Assembly: GCA_045628045.1 (NCBI GenBank)
Contig: JAZQOV010000001.1
Span: forward strand, 88,151 to 152,150
DNA length: 64,000 nt
Reading direction: 5' to 3'
Source of the DNA: Bacilli bacterium
GTDB lineage: Bacteria; Bacillota_I; Bacilli_A; RFN20; CAG-826
The notes under the pieces were generated by a model, which saw only the letters and a program-made list of their open reading frames with translations, did no database searches and was not told the DNA's origin. This document shows, one piece after another, positions 22,368 through 33,215 of the stretch. Every line of letters begins with the position of its first letter. Position 1 is the stretch's first letter. Position numbers and translations under genes: made by a program.

Positions 22368-22426
22368 ACATAAGATTTCTTATATACAACTTTATTTTTA
22401 AATAAATGCGACTATAATATATGTAT

Positions 22427-23905
22427 ATGAAATCGTGTCGTTTAATTCTCATAGCTAGCGTATCAGCCTTACTTTTAGGCGGCTGTGACTTTTCGTCATT
22501 ACCTGCAATTGGAGAAGAATTACAAATTTCTAATCCACCTTCAAAAACAGTTTATGTTGTCGGAGAGTCCTTTGATCCAGAAGGAATGGAGGTTGTGCTG
22601 AGCAGTCTTTTAAAAAGTGAAGTTGTTACAGACTATACATATGAGCCAACCACTCCATTAACCTTAGAAGATGAATATATCACTGTTTTATATGATAAAT
22701 ATTCTGTGCAAACCCCAATTGAAATTAAGGAAGCTGCTGAAAAAGTTTTAGTAAGCATTGAAATATCAACTCCGCCTTCAAAATTAACTTATATAGAAGG
22801 TGAATCATTTGAAACTTCAGGAATGGTTGTTAAAGCTGTTTATTCAACAGGCGAAAAAGAAACAATTAGCAATTATTCAGTATCATTAACTGGTGCTTTG
22901 ACTACTTCAGATAATGAAGTTTCAATTACTTACGAAGGAAAAACCGCCAGAATTTCTATTGTTGTTCAACCAAAATCCGGTGCGGTTCTTCAAAGTATTT
23001 ATGTAAAAACTCAACCAAGTCAAACCACATACACCGAAGGTGATTACTTTAATCCAAACGGCATGGTTGTTATGGGCCGATACTCTGATGGAAGTGAATC
23101 TCAAATTACTTCTTATACATGCTCACCAACGAGTGCTTTAACTACTTCAAATAAAACCATTACAGTAAGTTGTGGTAGTTTTACAGCCACAGTAAATATT
23201 ACTGTTAACCCAAAACAAGGTGGTTATACTGGTTATTATGAAGAAATTAACCCAAACAGTACGAATTTACTTAGCGATTTGCGCTCTTTAAATGGCAAAA
23301 AGCGAAAATCAACAGTTGGTTATAAACCAATGCTTAATGATCCTCAACATGGTTTCTATTTAACAGACCCAGGAAATGGGCAAAACACTATTACTTCCTT
23401 TTATTCAGGCAAAAGTATTAACGGAACTGGTGGTTTAAATAGAGAACATGTTTGGCCAGATTCTAGAGGCGGCAATTATGTTGACAACGATATTCATATG
23501 ACTCGTCCAACACTTACAGCTGAAAACGGAAATAGAGGAAATTCCTTCTATGTTGAAGGCAAATGCAGCTCTAGTGGTGGATGGGATCCAGCAGCGACAT
23601 CATTTGGCTTAGAATCCTATCGTGGCGATGCCGCTCGTATTATCTTCTATTGCGTTGTTGCATCCAATCAATTGTCGTTAGTCGATACGAACGATGATGA
23701 TAAAAATAATAAAACAATGGGCAAATTATCTGATTTAATTAAATGGAATTTAAAATACCCAGTTCTCGAGCGCGAAATGACACGAAATAACGCAGCTGAA
23801 AAGCTTCAAGGCAATAGAAATCCATTTATCGATCATCCAGAATTAGTTTGCAAAATCTGGGGAAACTACAATTCGACTACAAAATCAATATGCGGAGGAT
23901 ATTAA
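22427..23905 (+). CDS. Lipoprotein with three bacterial Ig-like repeats and a C-terminal endonuclease I (Bsn-like) domain
   Basis: Lipobox LGGC; three PxKxxYxxGExFxxxGMVV repeats; REHVWP, RGDAARIIFY, QGNRNPFIDHPE. Confidence 0.88.
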   Translation: MKSCRLILIASVSALLLGGCDFSSLPAIGEELQISNPPSKTVYVVGESFDPEGMEVVLSSLLKSEVVTDYTYEPTTPLTLEDEYITVLYDKYSVQTPIEIKEAAEKVLVSIEISTPPSKLTYIEGESFETSGMVVKAVYSTGEKETISNYSVSLTGALTTSDNEVSITYEGKTARISIVVQPKSGAVLQSIYVKTQPSQTTYTEGDYFNPNGMVVMGRYSDGSESQITSYTCSPTSALTTSNKTITVSCGSFTATVNITVNPKQGGYTGYYEEINPNSTNLLSDLRSLNGKKRKSTVGYKPMLNDPQHGFYLTDPGNGQNTITSFYSGKSINGTGGLNREHVWPDSRGGNYVDNDIHMTRPTLTAENGNRGNSFYVEGKCSSSGGWDPAATSFGLESYRGDAARIIFYCVVASNQLSLVDTNDDDKNNKTMGKLSDLIKWNLKYPVLEREMTRNNAAEKLQGNRNPFIDHPELVCKIWGNYNSTTKSICGGY

Positions 23906-23906
23906 A

Positions 23907-24836
23907 ATGAAATTTGGAAAAATCGCACTTCTAACATTAGTTACCTTGGGTAGTGTTACATTAAGTAGCTGCTACATTGATTTAGGTTTTATTAAAATTG
24001 GAACAAAAACCGAAAATGGTGGAGGCGGTGGTAGCACCGTTATTGATGATAAAACTCAAAATAATTTAATTTCAAAATATTATTCAGGTCTAAATGATAA
24101 TCAAAAAGGCACCTCGCTTTTGAACGCACTTTATACATTAAACCTTTCTAAAAGAAAAACATTAACTGGATATTCAGCAATGGGTTCAACCTCTGGTGGA
24201 AAATTCAAGTTTACAGATTTTGACCCAAATTCAACAATTAAAACTGTAAAAGCCACAATTGATGGAATTAGTGTCGATGTTCCATATGGCTCAAAAGTTT
24301 TAAGTTTCTACAGCGGAAAATCCACTGCAACATTCAATAAAGAACACGTTTGGCCTGCTTCAAGACTCACTGGAGGAAGGGGCAATAATGATTTAGAGGA
24401 TGATATCCTCATGCCACGCCCAACCATTTCAGAAGAAAACTCTGATCGTGGAAACTCAGTTTACGTTACAGGAATGTCCACCAGTAATGCTGGTTGGGAT
24501 CCAGTAACAGCATTTAAGAACACCATAGGTGTTGCTCAAAATATTCGTGGTGAATGCGCAAGAATTATTTTCTATTGCATGACTGGTGATAATTCATTAG
24601 TTCTTAATGACAACACAAATAATAGCGGCAACAATATGGGAAAGATATCTGATCTTGTTGAATGGGCCTGTGAAAACCCTGTCAATGACAGAGAAAAACG
24701 CAGAAATTTAGGAGCCCAATATCTCCAAGGCAACAGAAATGCCTTCGTTGATCACCCTGAATACGTTTGTAAGATTTGGGGATCAACAAACTCAAGAACA
24801 AAATCAGCTTGTCAAAAAGCAAATTACGCATATTAA
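23907..24836 (+). CDS. Endonuclease I (Bsn-like) lipoprotein, paralog of the upstream gene
   Basis: Lipobox LSSC; KEHVWP, RGECARIIFY, QGNRNAFVDHPE. Confidence 0.88.
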   Translation: MKFGKIALLTLVTLGSVTLSSCYIDLGFIKIGTKTENGGGGGSTVIDDKTQNNLISKYYSGLNDNQKGTSLLNALYTLNLSKRKTLTGYSAMGSTSGGKFKFTDFDPNSTIKTVKATIDGISVDVPYGSKVLSFYSGKSTATFNKEHVWPASRLTGGRGNNDLEDDILMPRPTISEENSDRGNSVYVTGMSTSNAGWDPVTAFKNTIGVAQNIRGECARIIFYCMTGDNSLVLNDNTNNSGNNMGKISDLVEWACENPVNDREKRRNLGAQYLQGNRNAFVDHPEYVCKIWGSTNSRTKSACQKANYAY

Positions 24837-24870: not shown

Positions 24871-26448
24871 ATGAAAAACAAGTTCTACATTACTACGCCT
24901 ATATATTATCCAAGCGCTGAAGCGCATATTGGGCACGCTTATTGCACTACAATGTGCGATATTCTTGCACGTTCAAAGCGCATGCGTGGTTTTGAGACAT
25001 ATTTTCTAACAGGCACCGATGAACACGGCGAAAAAATCCAAAAGAAAGCTGCTGAAAAAGGTGTTACTCCTCAACAATACGTCGATGAAATTGCTGGCAA
25101 ATTCAAAGAATTATGGAAGGCAATGTGTATTTCAAATGATGACTTTATAAGAACAACCGAAGAACGTCATACTAAGGTCGTTCAATCAATATTTTCTAAA
25201 ATGCTCAAAAATGATGATATTTACCTTGGTAAATATAAAGGTTGGTATTGTACTCCTTGTGAATCATTTTGGACTGACACTCAAGTAGGTGAAGAGCATC
25301 TTTGCCCAGATTGCCATAGACCAGTTCATGAAGCAGAAGAAGAATGCTATTTTTTCAAAACCTCAAAATACATTGATGTTGTAACAAAGCATTATGAAGC
25401 AAATCCAAAATTCATTACTCCTGTTGCTCGTAAAAACGAGATGATGAATACGTTTATTAATAAAGGACTTGATGATTTGTGTGTATCAAGAACAACATTT
25501 GACTGGGGAATTCCAGTTATTGAAAATAACAAACACGTTATGTACGTTTGGTTAGATGCGCTTTGCAATTACATTACTGCTCTTGGTTATGGTTCAGATA
25601 ATCCAGAACTTTTCGAAAAATTCTGGAATGATCCAAATTGTGAGATTGTGCACGTTGTAGGCGCTGATATTACGCGCTTCCACGTTATTTATTGGCCGAT
25701 GTTTTTAACATCACTTGGATTAAGACTTCCAGATAGAGTTTTCGTCCATGGTCTTTTAGATTTAAATGGGGAAAAGATGTCAAAATCACGTGGAAACGTA
25801 GTTTCACCATTCCCATTAATTGAAAGATATGGTGTTGATACAGTTCGTTGGTTCCTCGCTAAAGAATTTGCCTTCGGCAGTGATGGAAGATTTACTCCTG
25901 AATCTTTCGCAGAACGTATTAATGTCGATTTAGCAAACAACTACGGAAATCTTGTTAGCAGAACAATTTCAATGATTGCTAAATATTTTGATGGAGTTAT
26001 TCCAACACTCTCAAATCCTGGAGAAAAAGAAAAATCAATTCGTGACTTAACAGAAAAAACAGTTAAAGCTTACGAAAATTTAATGGATGATTTAAAGATT
26101 TCTGAAGCACTTAGTGAAGTTGTAAATTTACTTAATGTCGCAAACAAATATATTGAAGAATCCGCACCATGGGTTTTAGCTAAAGAAGGTAAGCAAGAAG
26201 AACTCGGAAACGTAATGGCAGTTTTATCAAATTCAATTATCGTTTGTTCGAAACTTTTATCACCAGTTTTAGTTGAATCCACTGAAAAAGTTTTTGAAAT
26301 GTTTAACTTAACAGAAACCCAAAAATCCTATGAATTTAACGGGAATTTCTGCGGATTTTCCGGAAATAAAGTTACAAAGGGTGAACCATTATTCCCAAGA
26401 CTTGATCTTCAAGTTGAGACAGAATTTATTAGTTCGTTATCAAAATAA
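24871..26448 (+). CDS. metG: Methionine--tRNA ligase (short form, no C-terminal OB domain)
   Basis: YITTPIYY, HIGH, TGTDEHG, CxxC...CxxC knuckle, YVWLDAL, KMSKS. Confidence 0.97.
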   Translation: MKNKFYITTPIYYPSAEAHIGHAYCTTMCDILARSKRMRGFETYFLTGTDEHGEKIQKKAAEKGVTPQQYVDEIAGKFKELWKAMCISNDDFIRTTEERHTKVVQSIFSKMLKNDDIYLGKYKGWYCTPCESFWTDTQVGEEHLCPDCHRPVHEAEEECYFFKTSKYIDVVTKHYEANPKFITPVARKNEMMNTFINKGLDDLCVSRTTFDWGIPVIENNKHVMYVWLDALCNYITALGYGSDNPELFEKFWNDPNCEIVHVVGADITRFHVIYWPMFLTSLGLRLPDRVFVHGLLDLNGEKMSKSRGNVVSPFPLIERYGVDTVRWFLAKEFAFGSDGRFTPESFAERINVDLANNYGNLVSRTISMIAKYFDGVIPTLSNPGEKEKSIRDLTEKTVKAYENLMDDLKISEALSEVVNLLNVANKYIEESAPWVLAKEGKQEELGNVMAVLSNSIIVCSKLLSPVLVESTEKVFEMFNLTETQKSYEFNGNFCGFSGNKVTKGEPLFPRLDLQVETEFISSLSK

Positions 26449-26450
26449 TT

Positions 26451-29078
26451 ATGGCAAAGTTAGATCAGAATAGAACCCCATATTTAGATGCCTTAAAAAC
26501 CTACATTTCAAGGAGCACTTCTCAACTAGATGTTCCTGGTCATCAACAAGGCAATGTCGAAAATAAATTAAAGGACTTTATTGGTTCTCAAGTTTTTAAA
26601 TGCGACGTTAACGCTCCAATTGGGATGGATAACCTCGCAAACCCACATGCTTGCTTGGCAGAAGCCGAAGAACTTATGGCCGATTATGCAAACGCGGATC
26701 ATTCGTTTTTCTTAATTAACGGAACATCAAGTGGAATCATTGCGATGATTATGTCGGCATGTCATGCAAATGACAAAATCATTCTTCCAAGAAACGTTCA
26801 TAAATCAATTGTTTCAGCACTTATTCTTTCAGGTGCTCAACCAATTTACATAATGCCTCGTATTGACGCCGATCTTGAAATTGCAAACCAACCAACTGTA
26901 GATGAATACATAAATGCTATGCATCGTTATCCATCTGCAAAGGCAATATTTGTAATAAATCCAACATATTTTGGTGCAGTTAACGACTTAAAACGCCTCG
27001 TTGAAGAAGCTCATAAACGTGGCGTTACCGTTTTAGTAGATGAAGCACATGGTGCTCATTACTACTTCGATAAAAAAGGGCCAGTTTCTGCTATGGATGC
27101 AGGTGCAGATATGGCTTCTGTTTCATTTCATAAAACAGCAGGATCTTTAACTCAATCCTCAGTTTTACTTTTAAAATCAGAGATTATCGATAAAATTACT
27201 GTTCAAAAAACACTTAATATTTTAAATACAACTTCTCCATCCACAATTCTTATGGCATCTATTGATGCTGCAAGATATTTTGTTGCAACTCAAGGACAAG
27301 AAGCAATCGATAAAACTCACGAAATAAGCAAATATGCAAGAGAACAAATCTCTAAAATTAAAGGTTTTGTCCCTTGTGGAAAAGATCATTTCTTAAAACG
27401 TGGTTGTTATGATTACGATGAAACAAAACTAGTCATTAAACTAGAACATTTAGATATTAACGGCTTTGATGTTTATCAGATGCTTCAAAAAGACTATAAA
27501 ATTCAGATTGAATTGGCTGAAACCTACGCAATTATGGCTATTTTGGCCATTGGTACAGGCAAAAAGCAAATTGATAAGCTTATTAGCGCTCTTAAAGATA
27601 TTTCTAAGAAACATTACAAAAAAACTTACGAATATAAACGTCATGCCTTTGGCATTGAGTTCCCATTCCAAGTTGTAAGACCAAGAAGTGCATATCACGC
27701 TGCAGGAAAACGTGTTCCTTTAGCAGAAGCTGTTAATCAAATTTCAAAAGAATCAATTATGATTTATCCTCCAGGAATTCCTTTAATTGTTCCAGGAGAA
27801 ATATTTACTTCCGATCTTGTTAAGAGAATTCAAGAATACAAAAAAGCTGGAATTACAATTCTTTCCGATTATGGCGCTGACGTTGTAAACGTCATTGACA
27901 CCGAAAAATGGAGAGCATTTAAATCCTATCAAAATAAAGTTAATGATTATTTAACAAAAAAACTTACAACTCCAAGAGCTGATGATTTTTCAATGCCTTT
28001 TGAAGGTGACAAACATAGTGGAACAATTATGTTACTTCCATTTAGAAAAGACACTTGGAGAAAAAATGCTGAGCCAGCATTAGAAAACTATAAAAAAGTA
28101 GCTCTTGCTATTGCAAAATATGAACCAGTTTATTTAGGAATTGCTCCTAAGTTATATAACCGTGTAATCAAAGATTACGAAGGAATTAAAAATATTCATC
28201 CAATTAAAGTTGCATATAACGACGCTTGGGCTCGTGATAACTCACCAATTTTTGTCACAAATGGTGAAAGAATGAGGGTTGTTGACTTTAGATTTAACGC
28301 CTGGGGCGGAGAAGTTGATGGGCTTTATTCAAATTACAAAAATGATGATGCTTTAACAAAGAATTTAGCCAAGAAATTTTCACAAGAAGTTTATAGACTT
28401 GAAGAATTTATTCTTGAAGGTGGTTCAATTCATGTTGATGGCGAAGGAACATGTTTAGTTACAAAAGCATGTCTACTTTCTGAAGGAAGAAATCCCGAAC
28501 TTAACCAATTAGAAATTGAAGAAACTTTAAAGATTTATCTTGGTGTTAACAAAGTTATTTGGCTTGATAACGGAATTTATCAAGACGAAACAAATGAACA
28601 CGTTGATAATATGGCGTGTTTCATAAAACCTGGTGTAGTTGCCTTAGCCTGGACTAATGATAAAAAGGATCCTCAATACAAAAATTCTTCTCAAGCATTC
28701 AAGACTTTAAGTAATGAAACAGACGCTAAAGGAAGACATTTTGAAATTATTAAAATTAAGGTTCCAAAACCAATTTATATGACTAAAAAGGAGAGTAAAG
28801 GCATTACTGCTGGAACTCATAATGCTAAAGTAAGAAATGAAGGAGACCGTTTAGCAGCTTCCTACATCAATTTCTATCAAGGTGAAAAATTTGTTATCTT
28901 GCCAGCCTTTGGCGTTCCTGAAGATAAACTTGCAAAAGAACAACTTCAAAAGCTTTATCCAAACAAGGAAATCATTCAAATTAATACAAAAGAAATTTTA
29001 TTGGGCGGTGGAAATGTTCACTGCATTACAATGCAAATTCCATACAACAAGGAGTTTATAAAGAAAAATGAAAATTAA
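26451..29078 (+). CDS. speA-aguA: Fusion protein: PLP-dependent arginine (Lys/Orn/Arg family) decarboxylase plus agmatine deiminase
   Basis: N half: DVPGH, NGTS, DEAHG, SFHKT, YPPGIP. C half: WARD, FNAWGG, LEGGSIHVDGEGT, HVDN, SYINFY, GGGNVHCITMQ. Confidence 0.9.
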   Translation: MAKLDQNRTPYLDALKTYISRSTSQLDVPGHQQGNVENKLKDFIGSQVFKCDVNAPIGMDNLANPHACLAEAEELMADYANADHSFFLINGTSSGIIAMIMSACHANDKIILPRNVHKSIVSALILSGAQPIYIMPRIDADLEIANQPTVDEYINAMHRYPSAKAIFVINPTYFGAVNDLKRLVEEAHKRGVTVLVDEAHGAHYYFDKKGPVSAMDAGADMASVSFHKTAGSLTQSSVLLLKSEIIDKITVQKTLNILNTTSPSTILMASIDAARYFVATQGQEAIDKTHEISKYAREQISKIKGFVPCGKDHFLKRGCYDYDETKLVIKLEHLDINGFDVYQMLQKDYKIQIELAETYAIMAILAIGTGKKQIDKLISALKDISKKHYKKTYEYKRHAFGIEFPFQVVRPRSAYHAAGKRVPLAEAVNQISKESIMIYPPGIPLIVPGEIFTSDLVKRIQEYKKAGITILSDYGADVVNVIDTEKWRAFKSYQNKVNDYLTKKLTTPRADDFSMPFEGDKHSGTIMLLPFRKDTWRKNAEPALENYKKVALAIAKYEPVYLGIAPKLYNRVIKDYEGIKNIHPIKVAYNDAWARDNSPIFVTNGERMRVVDFRFNAWGGEVDGLYSNYKNDDALTKNLAKKFSQEVYRLEEFILEGGSIHVDGEGTCLVTKACLLSEGRNPELNQLEIEETLKIYLGVNKVIWLDNGIYQDETNEHVDNMACFIKPGVVALAWTNDKKDPQYKNSSQAFKTLSNETDAKGRHFEIIKIKVPKPIYMTKKESKGITAGTHNAKVRNEGDRLAASYINFYQGEKFVILPAFGVPEDKLAKEQLQKLYPNKEIIQINTKEILLGGGNVHCITMQIPYNKEFIKKNEN

Positions 29079-29937
29079 AGTCGCAATTACTCAAATGAGT
29101 TGTTCAAACAACTATGAAGAAAACATTAAGAAAGCTGAAGCAATGGTAAAAAAATGTGCAGAAGCCGGAGCACAAATTGTTCTTCTTCAAGAACTTTTCT
29201 CAAACTTATATTTTTGCCAAGTTGAGGACTATGATAAGTTCGATTTAGCTGAAATTCGCGAGAAATCCCCGTTAATTTCACATTTTAAGGAAGTCGCTAA
29301 GAAATATAATGTTGTTCTTCCGATTTCATTTTTTGAGAAGTCTGGAAGCAATTATTTTAATTCGTTAGTAATGATTGACGCTGACGGTAAAGATCTTGGA
29401 TTATACCGCAAGACCCACATTCCTACCGGTGAATGTTATGAAGAAAAATTCTATTTCTCACCAGGCGACACTGGGTTCAAAGTTTTTAAAACAAAGTATG
29501 GAAGAGTAGGTGTTGCTATTTGTTGGGATCAATGGTTCCCAGAGACTGCGAGAATTTTAACTTTAAAAGATGCTGAAATTTTACTTTATCCAACAGCAAT
29601 TGGAAGTGAACCAGTTTTAGTTCGTGATTCAATGCCTCACTGGAGAAATACAATGTGTGGACATGCAGCTGCAAATATTATTCCTGTTTGCGCATCAAAT
29701 AGAGTTGGAACTGAAAAGGCCGGAAAATCTAGCATGAATTTCCAAGGATTCTCATTTATTGCTGATCAACATGGATGTGTTGTCGAAGAAATGAATAGAG
29801 AAGAAGAAGGTTTTAGAATCCACGAATTTGATCTAAAAGAAATCGATAAAGAGAGAGTGTCATGGGGAATCTTCAGAGATAGACGCCCAGAAGTTTATAA
29901 AGAACTTATTGGCTACTCAAAAGAAATAGATGAATAA
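29068..29937 (+). CDS. aguB: N-carbamoylputrescine amidase
   Basis: Nitrilase triad QELF / YRKTHIP / ICWDQWFPE; YEEKFYFSPGD; YPTAIGSEP. Confidence 0.93.
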   Translation: MKIKVAITQMSCSNNYEENIKKAEAMVKKCAEAGAQIVLLQELFSNLYFCQVEDYDKFDLAEIREKSPLISHFKEVAKKYNVVLPISFFEKSGSNYFNSLVMIDADGKDLGLYRKTHIPTGECYEEKFYFSPGDTGFKVFKTKYGRVGVAICWDQWFPETARILTLKDAEILLYPTAIGSEPVLVRDSMPHWRNTMCGHAAANIIPVCASNRVGTEKAGKSSMNFQGFSFIADQHGCVVEEMNREEEGFRIHEFDLKEIDKERVSWGIFRDRRPEVYKELIGYSKEIDE

Positions 29938-30844
29938 AAACAATAAGAAAAGAAATTTACATAAAGGAAAAGTAAATCCTAACTCGATAAAAGAATTTAA
30001 GGTTCACGAGGAATGCGAATTGCTTTCCTTTTTGTTTACGAAATTTCCTAATCTTTCAAGAAACTCTGTTAAATCCATACTTAGTGGTCACTATGTTTCA
30101 GTAAATGGTGCACCAGTTTCTCAATTTAATTTAAAACTATCAAAGGATGACGTTGTAATCGTATCAAAACAACGAATAACAAAGAAAAATAGGCAAGATT
30201 TACCGATTATTTTTGAAAATGATGAATTTATTGTCATTAATAAACCAAGCGGTCTTTTAACAATCCCAAGTGATAATGAAAAAGGAAGAACTGCCTACCG
30301 AATGGTTAACGATTACGTCCAACAAAAAGACAAACATAACCGTATATTTGTAGTGCATAGATTAGACGAAGATACATCAGGCGTTTTGATGTTTGCAAAG
30401 AACCCAAAAATAAAAGATATTTTGCAAAAAAATTGGAGCGAAATTGTTCTTGAAAGATGTTATTATGCGGTTGTCGAAGGGAAGATGCAAAAAGAGGAAG
30501 AAACTCTTGTGAATTACCTCAAGGAAAATTCATTAAATTTAATGTATGTTTCTAACGATAAAACTAATGGTAAAAAGTGTATTACTCATTACAAAGTAAT
30601 GAAATCAAATAAGCTTTATTCACTTTTAGATGTGAATATTGATACAGGAAGAAAGAACCAAATTCGTGTTCAATTAGGGCATATTGGTCATCACGTTCTT
30701 GGTGATGATAAATATGGTGAACCTTTAGACCCATTGAAGAGGCTCGCTCTTCACGCTTATAAATTAAAATTTGTTCACCCTGTGACAAAGAAAATTTTTG
30801 AATTTAAAGCGGATATTCCTGGAGAATTTTTAAAACTTTTCTAA
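29930..30844 (+). CDS. RluA-family pseudouridine synthase
   Basis: INKPSGLL, VHRLDEDTSG, TGRKNQIRV, LALHA. Confidence 0.93.
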   Translation: MNKNNKKRNLHKGKVNPNSIKEFKVHEECELLSFLFTKFPNLSRNSVKSILSGHYVSVNGAPVSQFNLKLSKDDVVIVSKQRITKKNRQDLPIIFENDEFIVINKPSGLLTIPSDNEKGRTAYRMVNDYVQQKDKHNRIFVVHRLDEDTSGVLMFAKNPKIKDILQKNWSEIVLERCYYAVVEGKMQKEEETLVNYLKENSLNLMYVSNDKTNGKKCITHYKVMKSNKLYSLLDVNIDTGRKNQIRVQLGHIGHHVLGDDKYGEPLDPLKRLALHAYKLKFVHPVTKKIFEFKADIPGEFLKLF

Positions 30845-30862
30845 AACTATTAGTTATTGATC

Positions 30863-30897
30863 AAAAAGTGCGTAAATCATTGCGCGCTTTTTATTTT
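30863..30897 (+). terminator. Terminator after the RluA-family gene
   Basis: AAAAAGTGCGTAA-ATCA-TTGCGCGCTTTTT stem with T tract. Confidence 0.65.
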
Positions 30898-30913
30898 CGG
30901 TTATAATATGCGT

Positions 30914-32455
30914 ATGGTCGATGCACTTAAGAAGTTAAAAAATTCATTTTTATTAGTCTTACCTGTTGCTTTGGTTGTTTATGCTCTTGCTTTAGCAAAA
31001 GTTGTAGAATTCGAGCAAAGTGAGCTAATTATTTTCGGCATTAGCTGTGCTCTTGTTGTTTTGGGAATGTATCTATTTAATATTGGCGCAGAATCCTCAA
31101 TGCAAAAAATGGGCGAACTTGTTGGCTCAACTGTTACTAAGAAAAAGAATATTGTGTTTTTGATTATCATCTTTTTCTTGTTTGGTTTATTAATTACTGT
31201 TGCCGAACCTGATTTGTCTGTGTTAGCCGAGCAGGCTTCTAGCGACCCTGCTACTAGATTGTTTTTGATTATATCAATCGGTGTAGGTGTCGGTATTTTC
31301 CTTGTTATTGGTGCATTAAGAATTTTATTTCAAAAGTCACTTAAAATTTGGCTACTCTGTTTTTATGGATTAATGTTTGCTTTATGCTGCTTAGTAGATA
31401 AAGCTAGAATTCCAGTTTCACTCGATAGTGGCGGAGTTACAACTGGCCCAATTACAGTTCCATTTATTTTGTCAGTCGGTGTTGGTATTGCTACCAGTAA
31501 AGCCGGAAATAAATCAGACGCAGATTCATTCGGCCTTGTCGCATTCTCATCTATTGGCCCAATTTTGGTTGTTTTAATTACCTCAATTTTAATGAGAAAT
31601 ATTTCAACAGCTTATGATGTTTCTGTATTAGAATACAGCTCGACTGCAACATCTTATTTTGACGTTTTTGCCGGAAAATTACTGGGATTTGACGGTGTTT
31701 TAATAAAAGTAGCTCTCTCAACATTACCAATAGTCGTTGTTTTTACTTTGTATGAAATCATCTTCATTAGATTATCATTCAGAAAACTTTTCGGCATGTA
31801 TATCGGTGTCATATTTGTATACATTGGTTTGGTTTTCTTTTTAACTGCAGTTGAAACCGGGTTCTTACCAATGGGTCAAAAATTAGGAATTTCTCTTGCC
31901 GGAAAAGATCCAAAATTATTTATTCTTATTGGCGCTGCACTTGGCTTAGCTGCAGCATTAGCAGAGCCTGCTGTTCACGTTCTTACTCAACAAGTTGAAC
32001 TTGTTTCTGACGGCTCTGTTAGCAAAGCTACAGTTTTAATTACTATTGCTTTAGGCAATGCACTTGCTATTGGGCTTTCAATGTTCCGTGTTGAATTGGG
32101 ATTTGATTTGCTATGGATTATTGTTCCTGGTTATATCTTAGCATTTGCTCTTTCACTTATTGTTCCAGATATTTATTCTGCAATCGCGTTTGACGCAGGC
32201 GGAGTCGTATCTGGTCCAATGAACTCAACATTCATTTTGCCATTCGCTATTGGCGCTTGCTATGCAATTAATGGCGAACAAGCCAGCGAAGCAATTATGA
32301 CAGATGCATTTGGAACTATTGGTGTGGTTGCCTTGATGCCACTTTTAATGATTCAAATTGTTGGTTTATCTGGAACACTTCGTATTGTTACCGAACGCAG
32401 AATTGCTCGTAGAAGAACAACATCTGAAAACGACAATCAAATTATTCATTTTTAG
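30914..32455 (+). CDS. DUF1538-family membrane protein (two DUF1538 halves in one chain)
   Basis: Duplicated motifs AEPDL/AEPAV and DSGGVTTGP/DAGGVVSGP. ATG 30914 lies 6 nt after TATAAT. Confidence 0.85.
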   Translation: MVDALKKLKNSFLLVLPVALVVYALALAKVVEFEQSELIIFGISCALVVLGMYLFNIGAESSMQKMGELVGSTVTKKKNIVFLIIIFFLFGLLITVAEPDLSVLAEQASSDPATRLFLIISIGVGVGIFLVIGALRILFQKSLKIWLLCFYGLMFALCCLVDKARIPVSLDSGGVTTGPITVPFILSVGVGIATSKAGNKSDADSFGLVAFSSIGPILVVLITSILMRNISTAYDVSVLEYSSTATSYFDVFAGKLLGFDGVLIKVALSTLPIVVVFTLYEIIFIRLSFRKLFGMYIGVIFVYIGLVFFLTAVETGFLPMGQKLGISLAGKDPKLFILIGAALGLAAALAEPAVHVLTQQVELVSDGSVSKATVLITIALGNALAIGLSMFRVELGFDLLWIIVPGYILAFALSLIVPDIYSAIAFDAGGVVSGPMNSTFILPFAIGACYAINGEQASEAIMTDAFGTIGVVALMPLLMIQIVGLSGTLRIVTERRIARRRTTSENDNQIIHF

Positions 32456-32464
32456 GAGGGACTT

Positions 32465-32899
32465 ATGGCTTTAAAAAATAAAAAATTATTTAAAAAGAAC
32501 GATGACAAAGAAAGCTTTGTGCCTTTTGAAAAAGAAAATGAAGTTAAACCATTAAAACTTTTTATTACTGTTGTTCCTTTTGGCCAAGCAAATGCCATTG
32601 TCAAATTAATAGAACAATTTAGATCAACTTATAGTTATGTTACAACGGGTGAAGGCACCGGAAGGAATTTTATGCCTGGTCTTTTATCTGTTTCCGATTC
32701 TAAAAAGCAAATTGTGTTTTCTTTTGTTAGAGAAGATAGAGCAAAAGAAGTTGCTGATGCGTTAGCAGAAAGATTTTCGACTTCAAAAGCCGCGAATGGC
32801 GTTTCTATGTCAGTCAAATTAACTTCCATTGCTGGAGTTTCTGTTTATAGATTTTTAACAAATATCAGAAAGGTTAAAAAGGTATCGAAATATGAATAA
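32465..32899 (+). CDS. P-II-like protein
   Basis: P-II-like pattern with GEGTG and KQIVFSFV; context next to DUF1538. Confidence 0.7.
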   Translation: MALKNKKLFKKNDDKESFVPFEKENEVKPLKLFITVVPFGQANAIVKLIEQFRSTYSYVTTGEGTGRNFMPGLLSVSDSKKQIVFSFVREDRAKEVADALAERFSTSKAANGVSMSVKLTSIAGVSVYRFLTNIRKVKKVSKYE

Positions 32900-33215
32900 T
32901 TCAAACAAAGAACTCATTTGTTGTGTTATCAACAATGGTTATTCAGATTTAGTAATGTCTGCCGCAAAAAAGAAAGGCGCAAGAGGCGGAACCATTTTCC
33001 ATGGTAAAGGCACAGGCGCAGAAGATGCAGAAAAATTCTTTGGAATTAAAATTTCTCCAGAGAAAGAAATTGTACTAATTGTTGTTGAAGCTGAACAAAA
33101 GGATGATATAGTTTCTGCCATTTATGAAGAGGCAGGTCTTGACACAAAAGGACAAGGCATTATTTTTACCTTACCAGTTGATGATTTTATAACAAGCAAA
33201 ATTGAAAATAAATAA
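32892..33215 (+). CDS. P-II family regulator
   Basis: AAKKKGARGGTIFHGKGTG, PEKEIVLIV, GQGIIFTLPV. Confidence 0.88.
   Translation: MNNSNKELICCVINNGYSDLVMSAAKKKGARGGTIFHGKGTGAEDAEKFFGIKISPEKEIVLIVVEAEQKDDIVSAIYEEAGLDTKGQGIIFTLPVDDFITSKIENK

Follow-up and report, generated by a model that had tools for sequence, protein, structure and literature searches.

A single-chain fusion of a likely arginine decarboxylase and an agmatine deiminase in uncultured gut Bacilli

In S. pneumoniae and gut Firmicutes the enzymes of arginine-derived polyamine synthesis are encoded as separate genes in the order decarboxylase-speE-CASDH-CASDC-aguA-aguB. A locus of an uncultured gut bacterium, with a genome of 1.07 Mb that is 96% complete, raises the question of what a decarboxylase and a deiminase do in a single reading frame, and how they came to share it. 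The window, i.e. the whole stretch of DNA that was analysed, comprises 64,000 nucleotides of contig JAZQOV010000001.1 (positions 88,151 to 152,150; assembly GCA_045628045.1), and all coordinates refer to it. The features discussed are as follows:

24871..26448, + strand: metG, ending 2 nt ahead of the fusion start
26451..29078, + strand: fusion gene, 875 aa, ATG to TAA; ancestral-form AAT-fold decarboxylase (likely SpeA/ADC), linker helix and AguA
26451..27911, + strand: decarboxylase domain, residues 1-487, without the N-terminal wing (REC); PF01276, PF03711, motif and tree
27132..27134, + strand: Lys228, predicted PLP lysine in SFHKT, invariant in 44/44 fusions and aligned with the SxHK of characterised enzymes
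27912..27959, + strand: linker helix, residues 488-503, predicted (AlphaFold2), with conserved W487, Y493, D499 and Y500
27960..29078, + strand: agmatine deiminase domain, residues 504-875; TIGR03380, structure alignments and fold match
29068..29937, + strand: aguB, N-carbamoylputrescine amidase, 289 aa; TIGR03381 score 422.1 against a cut-off of 410.25
29930..30844, + strand: RluA-family pseudouridine synthase, overlapping aguB by 8 nt and a frequent downstream neighbour in the family
30863..30892, + strand: terminator-like hairpin (13 pairs) with U-tail, after rluA

The single uninterrupted ORF of 875 codons described by the first-pass annotation is indeed open from 26451 to 29078 on the forward strand, and the motifs it named are all in place (SFHK228T, W593ARD596, H717VD719 and HC858IT). 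The Pfam domains are OKR_DC_1 (residues 9-326, E 9e-68), OKR_DC_1_C (377-455) and PAD_porph (515-864, E 3e-108), and the AlphaFold2 model of the whole chain reaches a mean pLDDT of 89.8 and a pTM of 0.85. An open fused frame is present in 49 of the 221 genomes of the order. Within the same genus the whole frame is open in 18 of 24 genomes and is cut by contig ends in two more, and the four genomes in which the fusion was not found are 58-87% complete. A 23,030-nt contig from run X1 covers all of this locus and differs from it by 109 substitutions, without any gap, and pieces from X2, X3 and X4 bridge the junction equally gap-free. An assembly artefact is ruled out, since the frame recurs across the order and assembled contigs from four studies in total cross the junction. 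All 21 active-site and motif positions checked are kept in the 44 aligned fusions (20 invariant, one W/Y), and dN/dS over eight pairs amounts to 0.03-0.10 for the decarboxylase, 0.03-0.08 for the deiminase and 0.03-0.42 for the linker. Both halves are under purifying selection, with a broken deiminase frame in one of 80 metagenome loci (L195), and the fusion is real and conserved across a clade.

Several other readings were discarded. An internal restart yielding a separate AguA was rejected, as none of 51 fusions has a start with a Shine-Dalgarno match of at least 5 nt in the 32 codons before PFEG; a 4-nt match occurs there in five of the 51, and none in the 875-aa gene. Changes of AGG to Met and CGG to Trp codons occur in the order RFN20 (PMC8629427), yet an alternative genetic code has no effect here, since the fusion gene is free of CGG and CGA and AGG609 corresponds to Arg in 42 of 43 homologues. 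As for independent fusions elsewhere, just three of the 150 top representatives reach across the junction, all of them belonging to the fusion clade or being a fragment. Records titled E. coli, Bacteroides, Alistipes or Faecalibacterium have the gene order and tree position of the Bacilli family and were treated as mislabels. Two frames of about 800 aa that had been considered as decarboxylase-agmatinase fusions turned out to be two genes (G091) and an upstream frame extension (G154).

The decarboxylase half resembles the ancestral-form ADCs of S. pneumoniae (SP_0916), B. subtilis (SpeA), C. difficile, H. thermocellum and M. blatticola, which are about 480-490 aa long and with which it shares the lack of a REC domain, the PLP-lysine motif and the D-x-N clade motif (PMC8503589; PMC7531197). 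Unlike these stand-alone enzymes, the domain runs through a helix into a deiminase. PF01276 starts at residue 9 and models of the extended-form decarboxylases score far below cut-off, while the PLP-lysine motif and the PLP-binding residues (K228, H227, D197, H200, H117, N115) are invariant in 44 of 44 fusions. The clade motif reads DVPGH...D52-x-N54; compared by eye with the printed alignment, the D-V-P-G-H and D-x-N motifs and a one-residue gap are those of the all-ADC block in Fig. S4 of PMC8503589, whose six characterised members (S. pneumoniae, Selenomonas, H. thermocellum, Psychrilyobacter, C. difficile, M. blatticola) are all ADCs, whereas ornithine enzymes read D-V-T at that motif (PMC8503589). 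In a 138-row tree, which like our other trees contains no sequence of a characterised ADC, the fusion falls among the 46 rows of a D-x-N clade (support 98), and the Fusobacterium ODC-type fusions lie elsewhere. All family members show some activity on Arg, Orn and Lys (PMC8503589), and for SP_0916 the preference for Arg is about 24-fold relative to Lys and 83-fold relative to Orn (PMC8503589; PMC7531197).

The fusion gene is the only PF01276 match in its genome and does not lie upstream of tmk. Among the order-level stand-alone relatives first examined, a ureohydrolase adjoins the decarboxylase in four of six, and the one such neighbour that was scored passed as agmatinase (286 against a cut-off of 174.3) and failed as arginase. 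In the nearest stand-alone relatives the ureohydrolase is encoded elsewhere (5/5 genomes), and the three of these that were scored came closest to agmatinase, at 156-173.7 just under the same cut-off. Since all six characterised members of its clade are ADCs, the decarboxylase likely has L-arginine as substrate, and this assignment of the first-pass annotation is further favoured by the tree and the agmatinase-like partners of the relatives.

A preference for ornithine or lysine, with the two domains as parallel diamine entries (ornithine to putrescine; imported agmatine to N-carbamoylputrescine) instead of consecutive steps, is very unlikely. Specificity does switch easily among ancestral-form enzymes, and neighbours mislead, as in C. 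botulinum, which encodes AIH and NCPAH and yet has an ODC; in F. nucleatum an ODC is fused to a ureohydrolase-like domain (PMC8503589). The N-terminus of our fusion is similar to that of the Fusobacterium fusion, but the ODC identity this suggested was not upheld by the motifs, which fit the all-ADC block, or by the 138-row tree. Moreover, the Fusobacterium-type fusion P0130 belongs to another clade and is only 40% identical, the partner proteins of the relatives are agmatinase-like and not arginase-like, and arginase was not found in the genome.

The deiminase half scores 451.3 with the agmatine deiminase model TIGR03380 (cut-off 381.8) and 462.1 with PRK13551, below that model's 483. It was aligned to 2EWO, 2JER, 6NIB and 1VKP, and its fold match has a TM of 0.93-0.95 by target and an rmsd of about 1.6 Å. 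The active-site set is complete, with C858, H717 and D719 as catalytic residues, D596 binding the guanidino group, and W593 and W618 as the tunnel Trp pair; W593, D596, E713, H717, D719 and C858 are invariant in 44/44, and W618 is W/Y. The domain thus has the pentein fold, the Cys-His-Asp set and the Trp-lined tunnel residues of AguA from S. mutans (2EWO), E. faecalis (2JER) and plants (1VKP and 6NIB), and differs from known AguA in being the C-terminal domain of a fusion and in the clade-specific PFEG and LLPFR, which replace PGEF/PAEW and WP. AIH homologues can prefer longer guanidino-polyamines (PMC13625781); the makers of such compounds (SpeE, CASDH, SpeY) were not found in the genome.

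As in other AguA and AguB systems, an amidase-type AguB follows. Its start overlaps the fusion stop by 11 nt, in agreement with the earlier claim of an overlap, and its E42/K115/C152 match the nitrilase-family triad. Across 91 fetched fusion loci, which include some genomes fetched twice, aguB comes next in 89, and the other two end at contig edges. Domains, cut-offs, conserved active sites and linkage together support the proposal of the first-pass annotation that a bifunctional decarboxylase-deiminase is followed by AguB: the decarboxylase domain would likely convert L-arginine to agmatine, the deiminase domain would likely convert agmatine to N-carbamoylputrescine, and the overlapping AguB would release putrescine from it. 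AAT-fold enzymes are generally PLP-dependent homodimers, and the fusion may be such a homodimer carrying two pentein domains. Agmatine would most likely move between the sites by short-range diffusion, and what a 1.07-Mb genome probably gains from the fusion is a constant 1:1 co-expression, not a tunnel. We regard this explanation as a whole, including its origin as a single cassette-derived fusion (see below), as quite probable.

An HMM search of the 96%-complete genome gave no match for speE, CASDC (nspC), speD, DHS/SpeY or arginase/agmatinase, only sub-threshold family matches for CASDH, and nothing over cut-off for PotA. The spermidine genes whose loss the first-pass annotation had supposed are thus missing from the matches over threshold. 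Likewise, a sample of 35 genomes from seven genera with the fusion yielded no nspC, and speE exceeds its cut-off in none of 121 family genomes; weak PF01564 matches in 24 of 41 relatives cover part of the model only and were dismissed. Because no speE, CASDH, CASDC, speD, SpeY or agmatinase was found in the genome, putrescine is likely the end product of the pathway.

The fusion probably belongs to one transcription unit with metG, the likely end of which is the hairpin after rluA, although the hairpin alone is weak, as the 10 terminator-like sites compare with an expectation of 7.5 ± 2.5. The number of promoter-like sites does not exceed chance, and there is no Rfam match in 15000-40000. Expression together with metG and rluA would be of a housekeeping kind. 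In many relatives a DUF1538 membrane protein with P-II-like partners is encoded downstream.

The chemistry from arginine to putrescine consumes one proton and frees two ammonia. Together with the DUF1538 genes of the relatives, this would suit a mainly catabolic route, serving acid resistance or ammonia release with export of putrescine, but such a role is improbable, given that the decarboxylase has no wing domain, no antiporter is nearby, the sole APC permease found belongs to a polysaccharide cluster of a different contig, and the fusion and aguB are embedded between metG and rluA. Unlike the ATP-yielding AgDI systems, the locus is without putrescine transcarbamylase, carbamate kinase and antiporter, and no ATP-yielding agmatine deiminase route is evident, because AguB is an amidase-type enzyme and the only carbamoyltransferase scores 236 with TIGR04384, the putrescine-type model, whose cut-off is 500.

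How the two domains are joined bears on whether they merely share a chain. The first-pass annotation placed the linker correctly (residues 482-505), but it is no loose spacer: 44 aligned homologues show no gap column in it, it is predicted to form a helix, and W487, Y493, D499, Y500, P508 and D511 are conserved at 89-100%. In split cassettes its counterpart is the decarboxylase tail bearing the aguA ribosome-binding site. One sub-clade retains a fused, full-length deiminase domain that has lost every catalytic residue and is still pentein-folded (TM 0.83). These properties, as well as the dN/dS of the linker, its confident helix in the predicted whole-chain fold, and product inhibition, to which both enzyme types are subject or nearly so, would fit a docked machine, in which the fixed helix holds the pentein domain on the decarboxylase and agmatine is channelled from one site to the other, or is sensed so that the pentein domain regulates the decarboxylase, relieving product inhibition. 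We nevertheless consider both docking and such a hand-over or sensing of agmatine unlikely. In most bacteria agmatine, a stable compound, diffuses from one separate enzyme to the next, and three orders or families use the sister cassette with its separate genes for the same job. For the dead-domain protein the Atlas model reaches a pTM of only 0.62, and the faster evolution of the dead domain (46-67% identity where the medians of live pairs are 67-83%) also fits slow decay. The genomic context of the dead-domain proteins was not found in 401 genomes of the order (E<=1e-250) or in two metagenome scans. If docking were true, it would explain why a whole folded domain was kept after loss of all catalytic residues, and the split, fused and dead-domain cassettes would form a natural series for testing fusion, channelling and the birth of pseudo-enzymes.

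With respect to origin, the sister group of the fusion is a compact split speA/aguA/aguB cassette of three overlapping genes. In the decarboxylase tree the fused clade (100/99) joins the split clade (99/97) with 98/97, followed by stand-alone enzymes of the same family (100/100), and fused versus split takes one change of state. The stand-alone decarboxylases of the order adjoin agmatinase and metK. The resident decarboxylase of the order, ancestrally paired with agmatinase, would have combined with an aguA-aguB pair into a cassette of three overlapping genes, a small indel where decarboxylase gene and aguA overlap would have put both into one frame, once, and the fused cassette would then have spread vertically in one family and occasionally sideways. 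The direction from split to fused rests on parsimony.

The reverse, a split cassette arising by secondary fission of an older fusion, is rather unlikely. In genus g13 the split decarboxylases possess the linker helix in full, a count by hand gives 97 nt for the split junction of G068, a single base more than the 96 nt of the fused one, and in the deiminase tree, where the fused clade has a bootstrap of only 86-89 and G733 is unplaced, a single group of split plus fused forms is not rejected (p-AU 0.156). However, no split form is nested inside the fused clade, at least two different overlap geometries occur among the split forms, each with its own GGAGG and ATG, the AguA of the split forms groups with free-standing aguA-aguB pairs, and two changes are needed rather than one.

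The history favoured by the first-pass annotation, in which the three middle genes of an ADC-speE-CASDH-CASDC-aguA-aguB operon of the S. pneumoniae type were lost and fusion joined the genes on either side, was not supported and is highly improbable. Such an operon is common in Lachnospiraceae loci of the same habitats, CASDC is carried by a few genera of the fusion family, and the best single deiminase matches outside the order come from Lachnospiraceae (up to 50%). Yet the decarboxylase is closer to the split-cassette enzymes (53-58% identity) and other order-level enzymes (44-52%) than to those of spermidine operons (37-41%), an AU test on 28 rows, only three of them operon sequences, rejects a group of the fused and the Lachnospiraceae operon decarboxylases (p-AU 0.005), and the deiminase groups with order-level stand-alone AguA (100/100). 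An older operon loss, predating diversification of the order, may have occurred. The Lachnospiraceae operon uses the same three enzyme families for arginine to putrescine, but has separate genes and spermidine as product, and it is not the source of the fusion's decarboxylase.

Two known fusions invite comparison. In F. nucleatum an ancestral ODC is fused to an arginase/agmatinase-like domain (783 aa), the partner being judged inactive (PMC8503589). The decarboxylase family and a C-terminal guanidino-hydrolase are shared, and the inactive partner recalls the dead-deiminase sub-clade; however, the F. nucleatum protein belongs to an ornithine-specific clade (40% identity) and has a ureohydrolase fold, while the pentein partner here is intact. 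SpeD-SpeDC likewise combines two polyamine enzymes per chain in minimal pathways, with some second domains degraded, but involves other folds and reactions, and parallel instead of consecutive steps (PMC10407285). A published description of a decarboxylase-deiminase fusion was not found in the literature searched, in keeping with the first-pass annotation, which knew of no characterised case, so that this architecture of a textbook pathway appears to be undescribed. It is a new packaging of known chemistry, with no new chemistry.

Through the fusion, a widespread family of gut Bacilli, uncultured and with reduced genomes, can be recognised as likely producers of putrescine, and a single-chain enzyme from arginine to carbamoylputrescine may interest putrescine engineering. 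Near-identical split cassettes, live fusions and dead-domain fusions coexist as a natural experiment, so that the benefit of fusing consecutive enzymes could be tested with three constructs. Databases name the fusion only "agmatine deiminase" or "arginine decarboxylase", and with one name only, pathway surveys would miss one of the two steps.

The fusion of two known enzymes encoded in the window is genuine, clade-wide and apparently undescribed:

26451-29078, + strand: fusion gene (875 aa) for a decarboxylase, a linker helix and an agmatine deiminase, flanked by metG and aguB, the latter followed by an RluA-family gene

According to Pfam, Orn/Lys/Arg decarboxylase domains occupy residues 9-455 and the agmatine deiminase family match residues 515-864, and both the deiminase and AguB pass their NCBIfam cut-offs. 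The motifs and coordinates named in the first-pass annotation are correct. The fusion is real and not an artefact: at the level of contigs, assemblies from four runs of four studies cross the junction gap-free, one of them covering all 3.7 kb, and the whole frame is kept in 18 of 24 genomes of the same genus. Full-length fusions made up 120 of 120 among the matches listed in the first protein search (72-100% identity), and close homologues in named records come from uncultured Bacilli of the animal gut, e.g. Candidatus Fiminaster equi (79%). Among 221 genomes drawn evenly from the order (RFN20 in GTDB), a frame covering both halves is open in 49 and cut by contig ends in 2 more, all carriers belonging to the same family except G027; at class level the fusion is present in 19 of 399 scored genomes, one of these from another order. 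Stops were listed within the match in some rows, and in the two that were opened (G082 and G232) the genes are intact. The dN/dS ratio is 0.03-0.10, alike in both halves (8 pairs, with dS mostly near or above 1), and at 89 of the 91 loci retrieved aguB comes directly after the fusion. G733, from a different order of the class, carries an intact fusion plus aguB (L262:5766-9249) with the usual neighbours all missing, likely a horizontal transfer of the two-gene unit.

No description of a decarboxylase-deiminase fusion was found in the literature searched, which left most subscription papers and bioRxiv supplements outside, and a search of PMC13683441 for the terms "fusion" and "fused" gave no match. 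Source databases label the protein solely "agmatine deiminase" or "arginine decarboxylase". Nothing in the chemistry is out of the ordinary; what gives the fusion its value is this annotation gap, together with a natural series that runs from split through fused to dead-domain forms.

The active site of each half is complete. K228 and the PLP-site residues of the decarboxylase, as well as W593, D596, E713, H717, D719 and C858 of the deiminase, are unchanged in 44 of 44 aligned fusions, and the deiminase-half residues match, by alignment, those at the catalytic site and in the tunnel of agmatine deiminases with solved structures, with roles taken from PMC6447857. The best AlphaFold2 model has a mean pLDDT of 89.8 (five models, 80.8-89.8) and a pTM of 0.85, and places a helix at residues 488-503 between the halves. 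With Foldseek each half matches its own family, and no single chain matched both. The fixed linker length, the conserved aromatic and acidic linker residues and the high pTM of the model are in favour of a docked arrangement of the two domains. What speaks against a need for channelling is the stability of agmatine and the fact that the sister cassette functions as separate genes. A docked or channelling arrangement is considered quite unlikely.

Ancestral-form decarboxylases may act on arginine, ornithine or lysine, and neighbouring genes can mislead (PMC8503589). Compared by eye with the alignment in that survey, the fusion motifs (D-V-P-G-H, a one-residue gap, D-V-N-A-P-I-G-M-D and S-x-H-K-T) fit a block with six characterised members, all ADCs, and not the ODC block with D-V-T. 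A FastTree analysis (123 representatives plus 15 local rows) places the fusion decarboxylase within the D-x-N clade, separate from the Fusobacterium ODC-type fusions. Stand-alone decarboxylases of relatives have an agmatinase-like partner gene, adjoining or elsewhere in the genome, while no agmatinase gene was found in the window's own genome (1.07 Mb, 96% complete). Arginine is therefore predicted, with high confidence, to be the substrate.

The first-pass annotation had derived the fusion from a spermidine operon that collapsed around its lost genes. This origin is not supported by the decarboxylase half, which is 53-58% identical to enzymes of split cassettes, 44-52% to other enzymes of the order and 37-41% to Lachnospiraceae operon enzymes; grouping fused with operon enzymes was rejected (p-AU 0.005). 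In the split cassettes of G087, G068 and G129, speA, aguA and aguB are three adjacent genes with no gene in between, and aguA overlaps speA:

L139:5741-9219: split cassette of G087
L140:5598-9101: split cassette of G068
L156, L241, L244, L246-L258, L263 and L264: further split-cassette loci

The split speA/aguA arrangement occurs in 15 of 80 metagenome loci, with aguB visible in 13 of them, and also in G705 and G555, two genomes of another order. Within the decarboxylase tail of the split cassettes lie a GGAGG and an ATG that belong to aguA, in at least two overlap geometries. In IQ-TREE trees (LG+G4 without a mixture model; of about 100 available rows, 30 and 28 were used, chosen to span groups), the fused decarboxylases form one clade (100/99) with the split cassettes as sister (99/97; both joined 98/97), the stand-alone enzymes of the family branch next, and a single change suffices for the fused state. 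The deiminase half joins the AguA proteins of the order (100/100) with weaker inner branches; for split plus fused as one deiminase group, the AU test gave p 0.156. The split decarboxylase tail WDLYEKHKKDLEEYY, which contains the GGAGG of aguA, aligns with the fused linker WRAFKSYQNKVNDY, and the distance to the clade-specific PFEG motif is 97 nt in the G068 split cassette versus 96 nt in the fusion (hand count). The simplest reading of these sequences is a single fusion event, in which an overlapping speA/aguA cassette would have become one frame. That the split cassette is instead the fission product of an older fusion seems unlikely.

Five clusters (P0123, P0304, P0305, P0306 and P0307) combine an intact decarboxylase with a deiminase that has lost all catalytic residues, the equivalents of W593, D596, H717, D719 and C858 being replaced or non-catalytic. 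These proteins have 851-866 aa (P0307 is partial), their decarboxylase is 60-62% identical to that of the window's fusion (four whole proteins), and they nest inside the fused clade (IQ-TREE). The dead domain keeps its full length and the pentein fold, with 46-67% identity among members of the group; it is possibly a pseudo-enzyme, and could have a structural or sensing role or be in slow decay. Their genomic context was not found in 401 genomes of the order (E<=1e-250) or in two metagenome scans. The sub-clade resembles the F. nucleatum ODC, whose arginase domain is inactive (PMC8503589). A Fusobacterium decarboxylase-arginase fusion of 782 aa (P0130, P0286) reads DAHGD and DVD in its arginase domain and keeps the metal-binding aspartates that F. 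nucleatum is reported to have lost (PMC8503589), and may be an active Arg-Orn-putrescine fusion. Further rare fusions (P0148, P0224 and P0165) join an NNMT/PNMT-type methyltransferase to an ancestral decarboxylase (734 aa, 2 members), an alanine-racemase-fold decarboxylase to agmatine deiminase (1051 aa, 1 member on 2 contigs) and 5-FTHF cyclo-ligase to agmatine deiminase (556 aa, 1 member).

In the window's own genome, at 96% completeness, speE, CASDC, speD and SpeY, like agmatinase, gave no match, and CASDH-family matches were sub-threshold only. Lachnospiraceae-type HMMs (26-35 sequences per family) found nothing there except one speE match (E 0.0015). CASDC exceeds the cut-off in 7 of 121 family genomes and in none of the fusion-bearing genera sampled. 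Putrescine is the likely end product, judging from gene content, and since the gene lies between metG and rluA, without an antiporter and with an AguB of amidase type, the evidence points to housekeeping synthesis and not to acid resistance or ATP gain. Genus g22 of the same family (G145, G163, G216) has CASDC and a single match to protein P0001, which is deiminase-only in the two checked genomes (G060 and G163); such genomes possibly make spermidine from imported agmatine. The metagenome locus L243 shows this decarboxylase lineage in a third pathway layout: a stand-alone decarboxylase (45% identical) with genes resembling speE and agmatinase after it.

Two neighbouring groups of genes flank the locus:

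22421-24836, + strand: a pair of neighbouring genes for lipoprotein-like Endonuclease I proteins (PF04231), upstream of metG
30857-33215, + strand: tandem DUF1538 membrane protein, then two small genes (one with a Pfam P-II match)

The first Endonuclease I gene carries two Big_3 Ig-like repeats, and the copy number varies among relatives. The DUF1538 group comes after the fusion locus in many relatives, in G027 directly after aguB; its true start is probably further downstream than 30857, since the listed TTG overlaps a terminator-like hairpin. The own genome hardly ever uses CGG (0.06 per 1000 codons), and tRNA-Arg(CCG) was not found among its 44 tRNAs; CGG reassignment is reported for relatives in the order RFN20 (PMC8629427). 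At locus L259 (G000:C11:94000-106000), genes for xanthine-dehydrogenase-like subunits are clustered with those for two PLP enzymes, for a YgeY-family hydrolase and for an unclassified carbamoyltransferase scoring below all cut-offs tried; the cluster resembles a purine-degradation locus.
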